From Longimicrobiales bacterium (lineage in GTDB: Bacteria; Gemmatimonadota; Gemmatimonadetes; Longimicrobiales; Gaopeijiaceae): DNA of 64,000 nt. Both the position numbers and the translations under genes were made by a program. Below are positions 54,316 to 61,546 of this stretch, one piece after another. The notes below the pieces were generated by a model that searched no databases, was not told the DNA's origin, and saw only the letters and a list, made by a program, of their open reading frames with translations. How positions within the stretch are numbered: position 1 is the stretch's first letter; every line of letters begins with the position of its first letter. The stretch covers positions 1,440,001 to 1,504,000 of the forward strand of contig CBDCNQ010000005.1 of assembly GCA_965219445.1 (NCBI GenBank), read 5' to 3'.

Positions 54316-57300
54316 GTGAGCGCTCACACCAACACTGACGATCCCCTGCGTACTGAGGTGCGTCTCTTCGGAGGGCCCCTGGTGCTCGTGGACGGCGAGG
54401 CGATCAAGCTATCGAAATATCAATCGTACCTCATTGCTCTCGTTTTCGGACACGGAGAGGAAGGGATCTCGCGTTCTCGACTGATCGACTTCTTGTGGGA
54501 TGAGCCCGACGGGGCTGCTCAACGTCATCGGTTGAGTCAGCTGTTGCATGGCGTCACGAAGAAATGCAGTCGGAAGATCATACGGGACGACGGGGGATTC
54601 TTACTAAGCGACCTCTCGGACCTGTCGTGCGACCTCACGCGAGTACTGCGGTCGGTCAGAGGCCAGGATTTTCACGGACTGGACGCGCCGTGCGTCGCTG
54701 ACTTTCTCTCCCGCGTCGAAAACGCACCGACGGTCGCGTTCGAGAGCTGGCATGAATCATCGGCCCGACAGATAGAGGATCACTTCACGGACGCCTTATC
54801 GGCAGCTTGTTCGAGCGCTGAAGCGGAGGCGAGATGGTCCGACCTGGGCGGCCTCTTAACCGTGGCGGTCAACGCCTACCCACCAAATGAAGATTTTCTA
54901 CAGCGTTCTATCCGCCACCTCGTCATGACCGACAGCGCTGATCAGGTCCCAAAAGCGGTGTCAGATTTCGCGGCCTGGTGGGAAAGAGCCCACGGGAGGT
55001 CGTGGGTCCCGGAGCGCGCAACTTCGGAGCTGTGCCAGGAGGCCACCGAGAGTGGCCCTCTGGGGCGAAACACGGATGTCGGAGGCAGCACTACTCCCCT
55101 GGTTGGCCGAGGGCCTGAGCTGAAGTTTCTTCATACACGGCTGTCCGCACGAAAGACAGAGCCGCGACTCATCGTCGTGATGGGAGAAGCAGGAATTGGC
55201 AAAACGAGGATCATCGAGGAGGCGATGCGGCGGATTCGCCTGGACGGTATACGGACTCTTGCGGCCAGGGGAGCTGAATTTGAGGACTGCATTCCCCTTA
55301 GCCCGATCATCGATGTGCTTCAGCAACTGTCGACAGAAGATCTTTCCGTCCTGGGTGAGCCCTGGGTAACGGTGCTGCGAGGCCTCCTGCCGCGAGCACA
55401 CGGAGCACCGGAGAAGACCATCCCGCCCCCCCTCCGACCGTTGAGCCTATCTCGGCGCCTGATGGAAGCCTTTCTTCTTCTGTTCGAACATCTCTCGGAA
55501 CGTCAGCCCCTCACGCTATTTCTTGACGACGTACACTGGATGGACGAGACCTCACTCGCGGTCATTCAGTTCGTCAGGCGGCGGGCCAAGGGTGATCTCA
55601 CGATGGTTCTGGTGTTGACCACCGAGTTGATCCAGAAGCGGGCTTACGTTCAGGAGTTCCTGACCTCCATCAACGGGCAGTACGAACGTCTGTCCGTGGA
55701 AGAACTCGACTCGACCTCCGCGGAGGCCATCGTAGATCACCTCACCCAGGGAGTTCTGCCACCTAGGACACTGGAGTCGATCTGCGCTTTGGGCGCCGGC
55801 AACGCATTCTATCTCACCGAGCTGGCGGCCGAGGCCAACGCAGGACGGCTGGAATTCACCACGGAGCTCGACGAGCCCGCGATTCCTCCGTCAGTGCACA
55901 ACCTCCTCCAGCCCAGATTATTGGAGCTTTCCACAGATGCTAGGGATCTGCTTGCGATATTGGCGATCTGGGGGCAGACACAGCCTCTAGCCGACACCGC
56001 CGAGATGCTGAACAAGACGCTGTCTACCCTCATCGAGCCGAGCGAGGAGCTGCTGCGTTCCCGGCTAGTGGTTGAGGATGAGGGAGGATGTCGTATCGGG
56101 CACCCACTCGTTCGCAGGGCCGTTTATGATTCTCTTAGCACGGCGCGGCGTCGGATGTTGCACGAACACGTGGCCCAATCTCTCAACGCGGACGACGAAG
56201 CCAATTGGGGAGCCCTGGCGATGCACTTCGACAGGGCCGGTAAGGCCACGGAGGCCGTCAAATATTCAATGCTTGCGGCAGAGTTCGCGCAGCGGTCGGG
56301 GGCAATTCCAGAGGCTATCAGACACCTGTCGATCGCCCGGCGGAACGAATCCAATGTGGAAGCAAGGAGTGATATCCTCTGGAGATTGGGGCACCTCCAT
56401 TACCTCCGCCAGGATTTGGCAACCGCGGCTCCCATACTCGGGCTCTCCTGTGAAGGCTTGAGAGCGGCGGGTCGGCGAGGTAGAGCCTGGGAGGCCGAAC
56501 TTGAGGAAATGGATTGCCTCCTTCGCCTCAATCCAGGCCTGACTGCCGACCTCCTGGCCAGGCTTCACGAGATGGAAACAACCCTCAAATCCGAAGGGGA
56601 ATCTGAGGCCTATGCTAAGGCTTTGGATATTGAAGTTCACGCGCTCGACCGAAAGGGAGATGTCCAAGCGATTCGAGCAAAGCTCGAAGAGGCCGATGCA
56701 TTGAGCAGAGTCGGCACACCCCGGGCACAGTGCAGGGCGCATTGCACGTTGGCATTACACCAACTATACGGCATACCCGAGCTCGCCCTCGCGAGTGCTC
56801 GAAAGGCAGTCGCTTTGGCGAAGGCACACGACTCGGTCGCTGAGAGACCGATCGCCATAAATCGGCTAATTGTTGTCCTAAACTATCAGGGACTATTGGC
56901 CTCCACAGGAGGTCTGAATCTCATCACCGACGCGGAAACGGCGGCGGCGCTGACGGGCGATCTACTGCTTCGGTTCACCCTTCGACTTAATAGGGGCGTA
57001 TGGCACTTGGATTCCGGTAATTATGATGCTGCCGAGGTTTCCTTCTGCGAAGCGAGAGAGATAGTCGAGAGTGGAGACTCGGAGGCTGCAAGTGTCCTTC
57101 TGGACGTCAATTGTGGGGAACTCAACTTGGGGCTGGGAAAAAACTCGAAGGCCTTAGAGTTTTTCGAACGAGTAATGAATAAGGATCCGGAATCCCTGCC
57201 CGCTAACCTCTCCCTGAGCGCCAAGGCGGGGTTGGGAATATGCGAACTTCACCAGGGCAATCTGCGGCGTGCCGTCGAGAGGCATGATCTAATGCAATTC

Positions 57301-57582
57301 CCAAGCCATTGGTCCTTCGACCCAACGCTACCCATCACTTTCCGAGCCCGCATTCGTCGGTGCAATAGTGACCTGCCGGGTGCCTTAGGAGTCTTGCGTG
57401 CGACCGCTGAACAAGTCGAAACGAGGTTCCCCTTGAGTTGGATCAAGCTTCGTATGGAGGAAATTCGACTCTTACGAACCACCGACGAAGCCACGGCAGG
57501 CCGGCTGGCCGACGATGTGTCAAGAAAGGCTATGAACTTGGGACTCACTCATCAGCAGAAGAGAATTCAAGCCCTCGTTTAA
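54316..57582 (+). CDS. SARP-like wHTH/BTAD + STAND NTPase + TPR regulator
   Basis: ISRSRLIDFLW, LVGRGPEL, GEAGIGKT (Walker A), LFLDDVHWMD (Walker B), GNAFYL, helical TPR-like C-terminus. Confidence 0.88.
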   Translation: MSAHTNTDDPLRTEVRLFGGPLVLVDGEAIKLSKYQSYLIALVFGHGEEGISRSRLIDFLWDEPDGAAQRHRLSQLLHGVTKKCSRKIIRDDGGFLLSDLSDLSCDLTRVLRSVRGQDFHGLDAPCVADFLSRVENAPTVAFESWHESSARQIEDHFTDALSAACSSAEAEARWSDLGGLLTVAVNAYPPNEDFLQRSIRHLVMTDSADQVPKAVSDFAAWWERAHGRSWVPERATSELCQEATESGPLGRNTDVGGSTTPLVGRGPELKFLHTRLSARKTEPRLIVVMGEAGIGKTRIIEEAMRRIRLDGIRTLAARGAEFEDCIPLSPIIDVLQQLSTEDLSVLGEPWVTVLRGLLPRAHGAPEKTIPPPLRPLSLSRRLMEAFLLLFEHLSERQPLTLFLDDVHWMDETSLAVIQFVRRRAKGDLTMVLVLTTELIQKRAYVQEFLTSINGQYERLSVEELDSTSAEAIVDHLTQGVLPPRTLESICALGAGNAFYLTELAAEANAGRLEFTTELDEPAIPPSVHNLLQPRLLELSTDARDLLAILAIWGQTQPLADTAEMLNKTLSTLIEPSEELLRSRLVVEDEGGCRIGHPLVRRAVYDSLSTARRRMLHEHVAQSLNADDEANWGALAMHFDRAGKATEAVKYSMLAAEFAQRSGAIPEAIRHLSIARRNESNVEARSDILWRLGHLHYLRQDLATAAPILGLSCEGLRAAGRRGRAWEAELEEMDCLLRLNPGLTADLLARLHEMETTLKSEGESEAYAKALDIEVHALDRKGDVQAIRAKLEEADALSRVGTPRAQCRAHCTLALHQLYGIPELALASARKAVALAKAHDSVAERPIAINRLIVVLNYQGLLASTGGLNLITDAETAAALTGDLLLRFTLRLNRGVWHLDSGNYDAAEVSFCEAREIVESGDSEAASVLLDVNCGELNLGLGKNSKALEFFERVMNKDPESLPANLSLSAKAGLGICELHQGNLRRAVERHDLMQFPSHWSFDPTLPITFRARIRRCNSDLPGALGVLRATAEQVETRFPLSWIKLRMEEIRLLRTTDEATAGRLADDVSRKAMNLGLTHQQKRIQALV

Positions 57583-57665
57583 ACGCCTGCCGAACAAACT
57601 CGAGGACATCTCTTTCTCGATTACCGACAAACAAGAACGTAACGCGCGGTTGGTCGGCGCTCAGG

Positions 57666-59055
57666 TCACCGGTTCAGCCTCCCCCAGGATGCCTCAGATC
57701 TTCGTCGATAAGTTCCCGTTGAGGCGCTTCCATGGATCGTCTCTGGCACATTCAAGCCAGCTGCTAAGATCTCGTCGGCGTGGTCTTGCAGCACCGAGGA
57801 CGATACGATCGCGTGGACGACGCCGGGATCAAACTGTGTACCGCAGAACTCGAGTAATTCCTCCCGAACGACAGCGAGTGGAAGGGCCTTTCGATAGGGT
57901 CGGTCGGACAGCATCGCATCTATTGCATCCGCCACCTTGATAATTCGAGCGCCTATGGGGATCTCGTTTCCGACTAGTCCGTGCGGATATCCTCCACCAT
58001 CTACGCGCTCATGATGGTGTCGAACGGCACCAAGCACAGCCTCAGGGTAGGACGAAAGTGACTCGAGTAGCTCTACGCCCGTCGTGACATGAGATTGGAT
58101 CACCCTCCGTTCGAGCACGTTGAGTGGCCCTTCCTTCTGAAGGATTTCCACGTAGATCTCGTCGATCTTCCCAATATCATGAAGCAGCGCTGCAGTCTCG
58201 ACGTATTTGGCCTGTGTAGTGGAGAGACCCAAGGGTTTCGGCAATGCGACGGGATAACGTTGAAACACGCTGCGAATGGCCGGACGTGTACGGATCGCGA
58301 ACATCGATGGCCTTGACGAGAGCCTTCAAGAGGTTGGCACTCACCTCCTGAAGCTGGAAGGTCCTGAGGTAGGCTGTTCGGATGAACAAGAGGGGCAAAA
58401 TGACGAGAAGAAAGCCAGCAATGTTGTAATCCACATAAAGAAATGCCATTACGATCGAGATCGGACTTATAAGCAGATCGTAACCCAGATTCGCACCTGA
58501 GCGGCCTACAACAAGGTCCAATACCCTTCGGAATGGCATGCTCTCCATGATCGCAATGGCGATGGCCACGGCGCTTTGATTGACCACGAGGAAAGTCAAG
58601 CCGAATCCGACAAGTTGAACGCCCTGAATCGCGAACGGTGTGGTGACTGTAGCCTGTGGAACACCGCCAAGCGCCTCAAACACGATGCCCCCCACGACCG
58701 TACAAAGCAGATACTGACTGATGTTGAAGATCGCTTTGATGGGCTCGTTCCGGCGAACAATGACCTCGCCGAACGCGCCGGTGGCAGCGTGGAGGATTAC
58801 CGCAGGAACCGGCCCGAAAAGCAGGACGCAGGTAAGCAGCGGCAAAAACGTGATCGACGAACTGCCTGAATTTCCCGCGAGCTTGACCTTAATGGAGAGG
58901 GCTTCCGAGACGAGACCCAGTATCACGAGAGATAACAAGCCCGCCCAGGACTCAAATGATAGGGAGCTCAGGACCCCCCAATCCAGCAAGAAAAAGGATC
59001 CTGTAGCGAGCGCCACAACGCATCCAACATAGATCCTAAACGAGCTGCTCTGCAT
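57666..59055 (-). CDS. Membrane-bound HD-GYP phosphodiesterase, frameshifted at 58228-58230
   Basis: 7-8 TM helices; RDPYTSGHSQRV in frame A; LHDIGK, HHERVDGGGYP, DAIDAMLSDRPYR in frame B; removing one G joins the frames. Confidence 0.88.
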
Positions 59056-59082
59056 GCGCGAAAGCCCCCCTCGACGGCCCGT

Positions 59083-59145
59083 CTAGATACCCAAAATGCC
59101 TCTAAAGAGCAAAGCTCCTAGAAAATTGAACAGAGAGCTAAACAT
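59083..59145 (-). CDS. Unannotated 20-aa hydrophobic peptide MFSSLFNFLGALLFRGILGI
   Basis: ATG at 59145, TAG at 59083; AAGGAGGTG Shine-Dalgarno 6 nt upstream; co-oriented between two genes. Confidence 0.8.
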   Translation of the reverse strand: MFSSLFNFLGALLFRGILGI

Positions 59146-59275
59146 GAGCTGCACCTCCTTTCGTAGGTGTCAGCTTCTACCGCTCAAGAAGCTGCGGCCG
59201 CTTCGCTCGCTCCCCGCTCCGCTCTTGGCCCGTCGAGGGGGTCTCCCTTTTACTTTGAGTCTTGCGGGGCTCCGC

Positions 59276-59965
59276 TCAGATTCTGCCTCGGACCCAACGG
59301 TCCGCGGCCTGTAGCGTCCCCATTATTACAGCCCTATCGGCTGTGTCTTCAACGGCCGCAGCCCCCGCGAGGGCCGTGATCGACCGTCCGTGAATCGCAT
59401 GTATCCCAACCAAGACGAACTGTCCGTCGAACGCCTCGACTGGTTTCACTCCATCTACTGATAACGCTACTTCACCCTCGCCGAGTAAGGCAATGATCGC
59501 CCTCTCGATGGCACGCAGCGTCGCCTCGAGTCTCGCCCGAGGAAGGTCGGCCCCACTCGCTTCTCCCTCATACTGCTCGCCGCCCCACTCCACCGTGACG
59601 GCGACCCTCACTCGGTGCGCCTTCTCCGCGTTGACCCGGTGGGTCACGAAGAGAAACCGCCCCTCTGCACTCCGGCCTCCGAACCCCCTCAAAGCTGTCA
59701 GCGCAGCAGCCTGCTCATCTTCTTTCTGCGCGACCGACACCTTTCGGTGGTCGATCTTCAGACCGAAGTGAGCCAGCAGCGCCGACTCCACATTCCGGAC
59801 CGACTGTTTCGCCGGCACGTCCCCCTCCGTGAGGAGGTGGATCTCCTCTATCACTCCACCGGGGCGAGCCACGACTCGCGCCGACACGACTCCCCGAAGT
59901 GAGTTGAGAAGCGACTCTGCCCTCTCGATGTTCCACTCAGATTTGGGGGTCAGTTCTGCGTCCAC
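59276..59965 (-). CDS. Conserved hypothetical protein
   Basis: GVVSARVV...IEEIHLL...KQSVRNVESAL...IDHRKVSVAQ; first gene of the peptide/HD-GYP unit. Confidence 0.8.
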   Translation of the reverse strand: MDAELTPKSEWNIERAESLLNSLRGVVSARVVARPGGVIEEIHLLTEGDVPAKQSVRNVESALLAHFGLKIDHRKVSVAQKEDEQAAALTALRGFGGRSAEGRFLFVTHRVNAEKAHRVRVAVTVEWGGEQYEGEASGADLPRARLEATLRAIERAIIALLGEGEVALSVDGVKPVEAFDGQFVLVGIHAIHGRSITALAGAAAVEDTADRAVIMGTLQAADRWVRGRI

Positions 59966-60449
59966 TACTTTGCGGGTTCGAGGAACGATTTATTGGGCGA
60001 GTCCGAGCAACGACCATTCCGGCCACTCGAACTTGGCCCCACTCCACCGTTCATCGTTCCGGCATTCATGGCCGGCAGAACCGCAGCCCCCTTTGCGTGG
60101 GTTCTCCCTCTCATCTGTTTCCGAGTCGAAATTTTCCTGGACACATCCCTCCTGCGCACGAGTATTCTCGTCCTGAGGGGGGAAATTGAGGCACTTGATA
60201 TGAAGGCCAAAGGCGACGCCTGTCAAGGATTTCATTTTTTTCGCAAACATTTGACGTCAACGGGAGCCGTCATCGCTCTAAGTTGGTTCAGGGATGTAAC
60301 CTTAGGAAAGTGTCCAAAATAGGAAACACTTGGAGTTGGGTTCTGACCGGGTCAGCCACCCAGCGATCTGGACACAGCCTCGGGCCTCAGTATAGACTAC
60401 ACGATACGGGTGAACACCTAGAAGCTCGCCTCAACAGGACCCCGAAACC

Positions 60450-61161
60450 ATGGTGAAATCCGGCGGTGCGGCCGCACTCGTCTTCGTTCTCTCCCTCCTT
60501 CTCGGTGGCTGCGCCTCGGGTGGCTCGATCCCGGTTGTGGACGTCGTGAATCTTCCATCGGTGACGCGAACGGGTATTCAGCCGGGGCGACCAGGTGAGC
60601 ATCGCCTTCTACACGGCGGCGGGAACAAGACTGGACGAGGTCTCCGGTGAGCGCACGGTGGATCCCAACGGCGAGCTCTTTCTTCCCTTTCTCGGTACCG
60701 TCTCGGTACTCGGGATGGAGTCGGCCGACATCCGGAAGCTCCTGGAGGAGCGGTATGGAGCCCTCTATTCGAGTCCGGTCGTCGAGGTGGTCACACAGGT
60801 GAATGTGAACATCACGGGCGCGGTCCGGATTCCAGGCCAGTATTTCGTCTCGCCTTCGGCGACGTTGGTCGATGCCCTGGCTCTCGCCGGGGGAGCAACG
60901 TCCGAGCTCGACTTCTCACTGCAGGGTGGAGCGTCCGATCCGAGCCAAGTGCGCCTCGTCCGCGACGGCGTCGGCACGGTGCTCGACCTGCGTCCCCTCG
61001 ACGTACGCCCCGAGGTGATCGACCTCCTGGTCCAGTCGGGTGACTGGCTCTACGTGCCCAGAGCTCAGAGCTCCCAACTCAGACAGGATGTTTCCTTCTG
61101 GGGGAGTGTGCTCAGCACCCTCTTCACTGGGGTATCCCTCGTCATCCTGATCGCCCGGTAG
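60450..61161 (+). CDS. Wza/SLBB polysaccharide-export-like lipoprotein, frameshifted at G4 60584-60587
   Basis: LGGC lipobox; IQPG/DQV, VDPNGELFLPFLG, ITGAVRIPG, LVDALALAGG, QSGDWLYVP. Confidence 0.8.
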
Positions 61162-61236
61162 ATCCCTGCGAAGTCCTTGACACCCCCCGGCTCAGCGGTA
61201 GAGTATTTCTGTCGATGCACGCCTGGTAAGAACCGA

Positions 61237-61309
61237 TCCCGCGTAGCTCAGTTGGTAGAGCAGACGGCTGTTAACCGTCTTGTCGCTGGTTCGAGTCCAG
61301 CCGCGGGAG
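61237..61309 (+). tRNA. tRNA-Asn(GTT)
   Basis: TCCCGCG/CGCGGGA acceptor stem, AGCTCAGTTGGTAGAGC D arm, GACGG-CTGTTAA-CCGTC, GGTTCGAGTCC; CCA not encoded; upstream TTGACA-16-TAGAGT. Confidence 0.97.
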
Positions 61310-61546
61310 TTTTCTTGGAGACGGTCCGGCACCTCCCCCCAGGGGGTCGGGCCCTTTCGCTATCGCGCTTCTCTCAGGTGGTCGCTCCGGGGCCGACCCC
61401 GGTTCCCGCCTGGACCTGACCGCCCGTTCTTTTAGCTTCAGGGTTTGCCCCTCATCAGCGGGCGCCGACCCGAGATCGTTCTTGGAACGAAGGCTGGGCG
61501 ACGGAAATTGGGGCTGGACCAAAAGGCATCTTGGATGGAGGGCTCG

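Follow-up and report, generated by a model that had tools for sequence, protein, structure and literature searches.

On the reverse strand of a 64,000-nucleotide (nt) stretch of a Longimicrobiales bacterium genome (phylum Gemmatimonadota; contig CBDCNQ010000005.1, positions 1,440,001 to 1,504,000; this whole stretch is hereafter the window, and coordinates are counted from its first letter), a small open reading frame (ORF) of 63 nt lies between a gene for a 229-amino-acid (aa) protein and a gene encoding a membrane-bound MASE9 sensor domain and an HD-GYP domain. We hold it to be rather probable that the C-terminal tetrapeptide of the small-ORF product is exported and sensed by MASE9, tuning the breakdown of cyclic di-GMP (c-di-GMP). 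We observed a conserved gene order, covarying RNA helices, selection on the body of the peptide, a hypervariable tail, an association of this tail with MASE9, and a frameshift in the window's own sensor gene. As judged by comparison of sequences, the product of the small ORF is likely a lineage-specific peptide signal of a new kind, and the MASE9-HD-GYP protein would be a c-di-GMP phosphodiesterase.

Genomic context and conservation of the small ORF

In the window, the 229-aa ORF (59276..59965) is followed by a leader with AGCGR repeats, by the small ORF (59083..59145), which carries the Shine-Dalgarno (SD) sequence AAGGAGGTG (59152..59160) and whose 20-aa product, a predicted pre-peptide, is MFSSLFNFLGALLFRGILGI, and by the MASE9 ORF, which starts at 59055, 27 nt past the small-ORF stop. 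The initial annotation of this DNA had described three co-oriented units, with a 63-nt ORF led by a perfect SD and ending 27 nt before the sensor gene, and both the common orientation and the coordinates were borne out.

To see how widely this arrangement occurs, we examined homologous loci. MASE9 was present in 74 of the 151 Gemmatimonadota genomes searched, or about half; in the window's family, many members of which are overlooked by the Pfam MASE9 model, the 229-aa gene was found in 58 of 120 genomes. Among 80 Gemmatimonadota loci examined, 77 had a MASE9-HD match, and 74 of these 77 carried a small ORF with an SD. Two of the three misses were cut by contig ends, and the third was recovered in later parsing (same genome). 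The 229-aa gene accompanied the small ORF in 70 of the 74 loci, and three of the four loci lacking it were short. In other phyla, the best 80 of 588 confirmed loci, taken from an alignment of distant homologues, came from Bacillota, Armatimonadota, Chloroflexota, Actinomycetota, Sumerlaeota and others. A hydrophobic small ORF stood behind AGCGR repeats in 71 of these 80 loci (71 of the 76 with at least 350 nt downstream), and a called HD-GYP ORF came next in 52 of the 71; BLAST found more. The recurrent order is thus the 229-aa protein, the AGCGR leader, a hydrophobic ORF of 14-46 aa and MASE9-HD-GYP, so that the suggestion that a short SD-led ORF and a transmembrane HD-GYP gene would recur beside homologues of the 229-aa gene is confirmed. 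A stand-alone second MASE9 gene (L205, D. acididurans) lacks leader, small ORF and 229-aa gene all together. The HD and HHExxDGxGYP motifs were found in 29 of 43 family loci as called, the remaining genes being cut by contig ends, uncalled or broken. Because the SD-led ORF recurs in 74 of 77 loci and its body is under purifying selection, the small ORF is, on these comparative grounds, real and far beyond chance. Look-ups in a protein-cluster atlas returned only hypothetical or MASE9 clusters.

Some loci depart from this order. Several Gemmatimonadetes (L032, L039, L051, L060, L062) have an ORF of about 200 aa between the 229-aa gene and the leader, which by eye alone resembles a receiver-domain protein, and some genomes (G044, G405, G356, G209) have two MASE9-HD-GYP copies or tandem ATPase-TPR genes.

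A conserved body and a hypervariable four-residue tail

The window peptide consists of an amphipathic/hydrophobic body that ends in Gly16, followed by ILGI (codons 17-20; 59086..59097), which by the family-wide pattern of four-residue tails is the predicted mature tetrapeptide and specificity determinant. In the window's genus (4 sequences), codons 2-16 showed a nonsynonymous divergence (pN) of 0.057 and a synonymous divergence (pS) of 0.443, indicating purifying selection. In Desulfosporosinus, where 32 of 42 genomes matched and 30 fetched loci gave 27 complete ORFs (25 loci had all parts), pN was 0.074 and pS 0.38 in the body (residues 2-20), and 0.40 and 0.81 in the tail (residues 21-24; 27 ORFs each). 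In the Gemmatimonadota genus that we call g33 (19 of 22 loci parsed), pN was 0.036 in the body versus 0.59 in the tail (18 ORFs), with differences of 0.07 in the body and 3.2 of the 4 residues in the tail. A nearly invariant body with a hypervariable tail is therefore seen in two genera, one per phylum, and the pattern is weaker in a third, g35 (21 of 30 loci parsed). The number of distinct tails was 15-17 among 18-24 distinct peptides per genus.

The junction between body and tail is strongly constrained. The residue preceding the last four was Gly, Ala, Ser or Thr in all 105 distinct peptides from four groups, against a background of 31-40%, and the -3 residue was small in 62 of 62 peptides of the three genera and in 31 of 43 of the window's family. 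Exactly four residues follow the Gly in 39 of 43 peptides of the window's family, a set preselected for a near-terminal Gly. Signal peptidases follow a (-3,-1) rule, by which small residues stand before the cut site, and the small -3 and -1 residues seen here fit a single cut by this rule. The peptides of other phyla resemble signal peptides, with a median charge of +2 and a median best 11-residue hydropathy of 2.85. Among Gemmatimonadota, many peptides are short, with lengths down to 14 aa, and contain acidic residues.

Two variants of the small ORF were seen. At Armatimonadota-type loci (L123, L124, L127, L141, L145, L146, L161, L163, L167, L172), peptides of 38-46 aa have a signal-like N-terminus and a long Pro-rich tail in place of the four residues. 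Nine of nine Trp-ending Desulfosporosinus peptides (L230-L234, L236, L238, L240, L247) are followed by a spacer of 97-110 nt before MASE9, the spacer being 36-44 nt for the other complete peptides of this genus; the extra DNA in some Trp-type loci looks like a degraded duplicate of the 3' end of the peptide ORF.

The tail travels with MASE9

If the tail has a specific partner, the two should vary together, and covariation of peptide and transmembrane domain had been proposed as a check. Such covariation was seen at the last four residues in three genera. MASE9 diverges far more than its neighbours on both sides, with a mean distance of 0.40 in Desulfosporosinus (0.18 for the upstream protein, 0.14 for HD-GYP), 0.49 in g33 (0.12 and 0.23) and 0.40 in g35 (0.15 and 0.13), which is two to four times that of both flanks. 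In Desulfosporosinus, the nearest neighbour by MASE9 had an identical tail at 11 of 25 loci, compared with 4 of 25 by either flank, and in g33 the mean number of tail mismatches at the nearest neighbour was 1.58 by MASE9 and 3.21 by the flanks. At the discordant loci, where MASE9 and the flanks point to different nearest neighbours, the closer tail lay with the MASE9 neighbour in 17:0 (2 ties), 10:3 (2 ties) and 6:0 (6 ties) cases in the three genera. The distal half of MASE9 alone gave 15:2, 11:1 and 6:0 in the same test.

The MASE9 tree of the 25 Desulfosporosinus loci clusters by tail, with supports of 99/95 for TFRW, 95/90 for SFKW, 96/90 for the His-containing tails, 100/98 for xYRI and 100/100 for xFRI. 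The trees of the upstream protein and of HD-GYP are largely congruent and do not follow the tail types. The boundaries of the variable block are visible in discordant pairs (L230/L231, L232/L234, L233/L234), which are 0.98-1.00 identical through the leader and codons 1-20, drop at the tail, are 0.60-0.79 identical in MASE9 and return to 0.93-0.99 in HD-GYP. In L232/L234, for example, the leaders are identical at the nucleotide level (1.00) and codons 1-20 nearly so (0.98), but identity drops to 0.58 at the tail, stays at 0.60-0.71 across MASE9 and recovers to 0.93-0.96 in HD-GYP. The variable block begins inside the peptide gene.

A structured leader RNA encloses the small ORF

The small ORF is embedded in a structured RNA that the initial annotation did not include. 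A long-range helix, P1, is formed by an 18-nt inverted repeat, 89% complementary, whose 5' arm (59227..59244) and 3' arm (59063..59080) enclose leader and small ORF; in the window's family the 3' arm holds the G-rich ribosome-binding site (RBS) of MASE9. Between the 5' arm and the SD lie six AGCGR repeats (59180..59223), the last in the loop of a hairpin, P2 (59169..59195), which has an AGCGG loop and a conserved GC/GAC base and was defined by covariation and a minimum-free-energy (MFE) fold. A seventh repeat at 59276 overlaps the stop of the 229-aa gene. Of 52 loci of the window's family, 43 were parsed and aligned; in this alignment, two-sided changes occurred at 11 of 15 pairs in P1 and 7 of 9 in P2; together, the two helices were 90.5% paired, with compensatory changes at 18 of 24 pairs. 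None of 500 shuffles reached this covariation, and slid controls were 38-53% paired, in a test in which the structure was derived from the same sequences and kin are not independent. In other phyla, a helix search found an enclosing helix of different sequence that scored above all 15 shuffles in 53 of 71 loci. An earlier RNAduplex test of the long-range helix was noisy (z < -2 in 33 of 71) and was superseded by the alignment covariation and the helix search.

The AGCGR motif occurs 3.5-4.4 times per 110 nt, compared with 0.33-0.56 in shuffled sequence and 0.02-0.14 on the reverse strand. Because of this strand bias and the hairpin-loop position of the motif, we infer that the repeats are a protein-binding site at the RNA level. 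Of two candidate AGCGR clusters in this genome, just the one described here stands before a hydrophobic small ORF, and the idea that AGCGR leaders form a regulon in this genome was consequently rejected. The 3' side of P2 has a predicted alternative pairing with the SD region of the small ORF. The idea that the repeats act as an anti-SD switch by base pairing was also rejected, as forcing them single-stranded left the predicted SD accessibility unchanged (median 0.21 versus 0.22). A known riboswitch, including one for c-di-GMP, was likewise dismissed, since no covariance model matched the leader here or at 20 other loci: an Rfam scan of window positions 57000-61500 at E up to 5 returned only a tRNA and a chance nrdJ match, and a scan of the 20 loci at the gathering threshold returned only tRNA and RNase P.

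The MASE9 RBS is predicted to be closed, with a median unpaired probability of about 0.0001 over the 43 family loci, and a modelled terminating ribosome raises its accessibility to 0.25. The modelled opening fails when the SD lies at least 15 nt past the stop, and most such loci stay near 0. In Bacillota, P1 mostly ends ahead of the MASE9 SD, and therefore gating of the receptor appears to be a lineage-specific extra. In class Gemmatimonadetes the 3' arm is pyrimidine-rich.

The upstream 229-aa protein

The 229-aa protein belongs to no Pfam or NCBIfam family and has 1387 relatives among 50%-identity representatives, the named homologues at 61-65% identity being Gemmatimonadota. A search by sequence for a solved structure of this family, of MASE9 or of DUF5317, a protein described below, found none. 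The AlphaFold2 model of the 229-aa protein (pLDDT 91) shows two domains. The CimA regulatory domain 3f6g aligns with residues 102-226 (Z 10.2, root-mean-square deviation (rmsd) 3.0, 109 residues aligned), Foldseek matched the model to LeuA at E 5.4e-07, and LeuA_dimer was matched in 2 of 108 family members; on this model, the C-terminal domain has the (beta-beta-beta-alpha)x2 fold of LeuA/CimA regulatory domains. Residues 11-80 match the C-terminal domain (CTD) of CzcD, 6vd9 (Z 8.3, rmsd 2.1, 68 aligned), and this N-terminal alpha/beta domain has comparable matches to CDF C-terminal domains, to BolA and to subdomains of acyl-CoA ligases (Z 6.4-8.3). It has a KH-II/BolA/CDF-CTD-like arrangement with conserved His, Lys and Arg residues. 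Because of these residues and of its co-occurrence with the leader, the protein is predicted to bind the AGCGR repeats and to read the leader. The upstream protein had been put forward as an accessory component of the sensor; its fold and co-occurrence make a leader-RNA reader the more likely role. Distant paralogues in this genome (G000; C4:842862-843556 and C3:81076-82044), a tandem pair and a multi-domain form, have no AGCGR leader.

A frameshift in the window's copy

The initial annotation had read a single intact multi-transmembrane HD-GYP gene, which is not what the window holds. One extra base splits the gene into a 292-aa MASE9 ORF (58177..59055), which includes the first HD-GYP motif and ends early past the frameshift, and an overlapping 212-aa HD-GYP remainder (57666..58304), which is out of frame and has no SD. 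The 292-aa ORF matches PF20972 (E 4.6e-09, 36.9 bits against a cut-off of 24.3), and the 212-aa ORF matches HD_5 (E 5.7e-27) and has intact HD, HHExxDGxGYP, DAxDA and RPYR motifs, so that sensor and catalytic domain are no longer in one frame. The insertion site (58226..58240) was located by comparison with relatives and confirmed in independent contigs: the window differs from relative L008 by one single-base gap in 1071 aligned bases at 85% identity, and the same site is read through in frame in four of the relatives compared (L004, L008, L010, L014). Contigs of four sequencing runs (at most three samples, two studies) align to the window without a gap across the site. These independent short-read contigs rule out an assembly error, and the break is therefore biological. 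Past the break, synonymous changes still exceed nonsynonymous ones (23 versus 3 codons), which suggests a recent loss. The module in this genome probably cannot work, since its phosphodiesterase is frameshifted, and this lowers the local interest of the copy, not that of the family.

Damage was also seen elsewhere. In L006 (G007), an ORF resembling an insertion sequence begins exactly where the 229-aa gene stops; L005 (G004) has a MASE9 truncated at about 205 aa; and L200, L212 and L215 have a broken or partial receptor, which could be due to assembly errors.

Neighbouring genes and sequence features

A convergent gene for an AAA-ATPase/TPR protein of 1088 aa (54316..57582, forward strand; AAA_16 and TPR domain matches) lies 1.5 kb from the peptide gene in Gemmatimonadota and, like the structured RNA, was absent from the earlier description. 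It adjoins the module in 26 of 38 family genomes that hold both genes, and one related cluster of convergent ORFs was present in 56 of 70 Gemmatimonadota loci.

In 20 of 22 scanned loci of other phyla, MASE9-HD-GYP is followed by DUF5317 or by another HD protein. DUF5317 occurred in 52 of the best 80 of 588 other-phylum loci, partial matches counted, and was found neither in 41 Gemmatimonadota genomes searched nor in this genome. A role as an LspA-like maturase was unsupported: the best Pfam match to Peptidase_A8/LspA had E 0.065 and was seen in only 2 of 42 proteins, the hhalign probability with LspA was 2.4%, close to that of controls (0.1-1.1%), the best relevant Foldseek row had E 5.6 and there was no informative VIA match. 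Members at L104, L114, L142 and other loci have invariant Asn, Asp, Gly, Met-Pro and Ser-x-Gly-Asp residues, which suggests an enzyme. The model of this protein (pLDDT 92) gave no fold match, and we found no paper on it.

The small ORF has a G+C content of 38%, MASE9-HD-GYP 55% and ATPase-TPR 58%, all lower than in the leader and the 229-aa gene and lower than the genomic value (63%). A TTGACA hexamer at 60226-60221 (reverse strand), about 260 nt before the 229-aa gene, is kept in the five genus members shown and is likely a -35 element; a scan for consensus promoters and terminators, in which this hexamer was not listed, gave nothing above chance. Farther upstream, a Wza-like polysaccharide-export gene (60450-61161, forward strand) also appears split: its lipoprotein-like signal lies in a 66-aa ORF (60450-60650), which overlaps a 188-aa Poly_export/SLBB ORF (60595-61161) in another frame, and a tRNA follows at 61237-61309.

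Proposed mechanism and alternative explanations

In the mechanism that we propose, the small ORF would be translated into a pre-peptide, which would be exported and cut after the small residue, releasing the last four residues. This tetrapeptide would be recognised by the MASE9 domain in the membrane part of the neighbouring HD-GYP enzyme, and its binding would tune c-di-GMP breakdown in a lineage-specific manner, with any sign assigned to this effect itself a prediction. The 229-aa protein may control translation of the peptide via the AGCGR repeats. In the window's family, a ribosome finishing the peptide may in addition switch on translation of MASE9, a coupling that we propose because P1 is predicted to hide the MASE9 RBS.

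Several observations weigh against this mechanism. In g35, body and tail diverge alike (pN 0.30 versus 0.35), and identical tails are equally frequent by HD-GYP (6 of 21) and by MASE9. In the window's family, which was sampled at one genome per species and diverges more deeply than the three genera, MASE9 and the upstream gene tie at 12 of 31 each in the nearest-neighbour test, although the ten closest pairs are mostly consistent with the association of tail and MASE9. The partial Mantel correlation in Desulfosporosinus is small (r 0.15, p 0.02), and the tail SFRI is paired with two dissimilar MASE9 types (L245, L253). Kin are not independent in these covariation tests. The tail lies only about 30-110 nt from MASE9; any exchanged block therefore carries both, covariation alone is no proof of contact, and linkage could mimic part of it. 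As to export, no dedicated exporter or protease turned up among the neighbours scanned. The window-family peptides have no basic N-terminus, a median charge of -1, moderate hydrophobicity, an amphipathic character and a bulky -3 residue in 12 of 43 cases (Phe in the window's own), and for these reasons do not appear to be canonical Sec signal peptides; amphipathic and slightly acidic as they are, they may take an export route different from that in other phyla. Finally, the receptor gene next to the window's own peptide is frameshifted.

The covariation would arise equally if the peptide were not cleaved and, still in the membrane, served MASE9-HD-GYP as a small subunit or modulator, with its tail as a specific contact that coevolves with the sensor. 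MgrB with PhoQ is an example of a small membrane modulator of a sensor. A peptide of this kind would need no export machinery, the strong hydrophobicity of the other-phylum peptides would be natural for it, and stoichiometric coupling through P1 would suit it. It leaves unexplained, however, why a private subunit should have many tail types on a fixed body and why a small residue so strictly precedes exactly four residues, and the short Gemmatimonadota peptides with their acidic residues also speak against it; we consider it unlikely. The proposal in the initial annotation that the peptide is the sensor's specific partner, linked to c-di-GMP, has thus gained comparative support from synteny and tail covariation, and of the two roles suggested, a ligand is favoured over a membrane subunit because of the fixed four-residue tail behind a small residue.

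P1 is strongly supported and hides the MASE9 RBS in the window's family, which would also be expected if the small ORF were only a cis-acting leader, whose translation opens P1 and sets phosphodiesterase expression while the tail hitchhikes with a sensor that diversifies for other reasons. Such gating is not universal, as the Bacillota helices and the pyrimidine-rich Gemmatimonadetes arm show, whereas the peptide features are; moreover, the body is under amino-acid constraint, the length and chemistry of the tail are fixed, and the modelled opening fails at the longer SD distances. This makes a purely cis-acting role quite improbable. Least probable by far, in our judgement, is that the tetrapeptide is taken up again by cells and, as in RRNPP systems, recognised through the TPR domain of the ATPase-TPR protein, with MASE9 in another role. 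This protein is a conserved Gemmatimonadota neighbour, RRNPP receptors bind C-terminal peptides by TPR domains (PMC7425212, from the part of the text available), and in g35 its C-terminal part tracks tails nearly as MASE9 does (1.06 versus 0.94 mismatches). However, it shows no tail tracking in g33 (3.00 mismatches versus 2.21 for MASE9; rho 0.14 versus 0.38), and in 20 of the 22 other-phylum loci scanned its place is taken by DUF5317 or another HD protein.

Relation to known systems and significance

In agr systems, the receptor is a histidine kinase, AgrD has an amphipathic leader, and the signal is an internal cyclic peptide with a conserved Cys or Ser, followed by a charged C-terminal tail. 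The amphipathic leader is a likeness to the present peptides. The receptor here is instead a putative c-di-GMP phosphodiesterase, and the signal is predicted to be a linear tetrapeptide from the C-terminus, with neither a conserved Cys nor a charged C-terminal tail. AgrB was absent from the 10 window ORFs and from 32 proteins of 22 other loci, a search of neighbours only and not of whole genomes. In staphylococci, a hypervariable region from agrB to agrC defines specificity groups, and the resemblance to the present module lies in a hypervariable block that takes in both the peptide and the sensing portion of a membrane receptor (PMC6834553, as far as its available text goes). In RRNPP systems (Phr/Rap, SHP/Rgg, Alo, arbitrium), the mature peptide is freed from the extreme C-terminus by one cut, according to the accessible sections of PMC7425212. 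The present short ORFs fit this pattern by sequence, with a hydrophobic N-terminus and a predicted mature peptide at the C-terminus; RRNPP receptors are cytoplasmic with a TPR pocket and their peptides usually have 5-10 aa, whereas the covarying partner here is an integral membrane domain and the predicted peptide has 4. By analogy, the module resembles agr in its cassette logic and RRNPP in its precursor, and appears to fall outside, or cannot be placed in, either group.

Coupling through leader ORFs, for example mgtQ (PMC8092293, available text), is similar in that a ribosome translating the small ORF is predicted to unfold a helix that covers the RBS of the following gene. The helix described here differs in that it closes about 150 nt around a whole ORF, has AGCGR repeats and no Rfam match, and encloses a selected peptide. 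Riboswitch-controlled small membrane proteins of C. difficile are also small hydrophobic proteins tied to c-di-GMP, but they are outputs of c-di-GMP riboswitches, and in the accessible text of that paper (PMC13724677) MASE is absent and HD-GYP appears only in a reference. MASE9-HD-GYP proteins themselves have been described as TM1467 of T. maritima and HdgA of S. venezuelae, which have the same domain pair and are membrane-bound; the window copy differs from them in being frameshifted. MASE9 is regarded as an orphan sensor, and its ligand is predicted to bind inside the membrane (10.1101/2021.11.05.467447, main text), and S. venezuelae hdgA is weakly expressed and without phenotype, its activating signals being thought to be missing (PMC6205966, main text). 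The main texts of these two papers never use the word "peptide" and describe no small ORF, leader or partner. A literature search, mostly outside subscription papers and preprint supplements (such as Fig. S5 on MASE9), found no description of the peptide, the leader, the 229-aa family or DUF5317.

We tentatively suggest, with somewhat more doubt than confidence, that the module represents a third class of bacterial peptide communication that shares no parts with agr/ComCDE or RRNPP. It would combine a four-residue pheromone, an intramembrane MASE9 pocket that directly gates a c-di-GMP phosphodiesterase, swaps of tail-plus-sensor cassettes, and peptide synthesis under an undescribed RNA-binding protein acting on AGCGR-repeat RNA, in monoderms and diderms alike (Bacillota, Chloroflexota, Actinomycetota, Armatimonadota, Sumerlaeota, Gemmatimonadota). 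The undescribed structured RNA and the probable new family of RNA-binding proteins would be new in their own right. For the orphan sensor MASE9, the tail provides a concrete and cheaply testable ligand candidate, since the genus tables pair each tetrapeptide with a sensor. If our reading is correct, about half of the Gemmatimonadota genomes searched and many anaerobic Bacillota would possess a means of passing a kin-specific peptide signal directly on to c-di-GMP.

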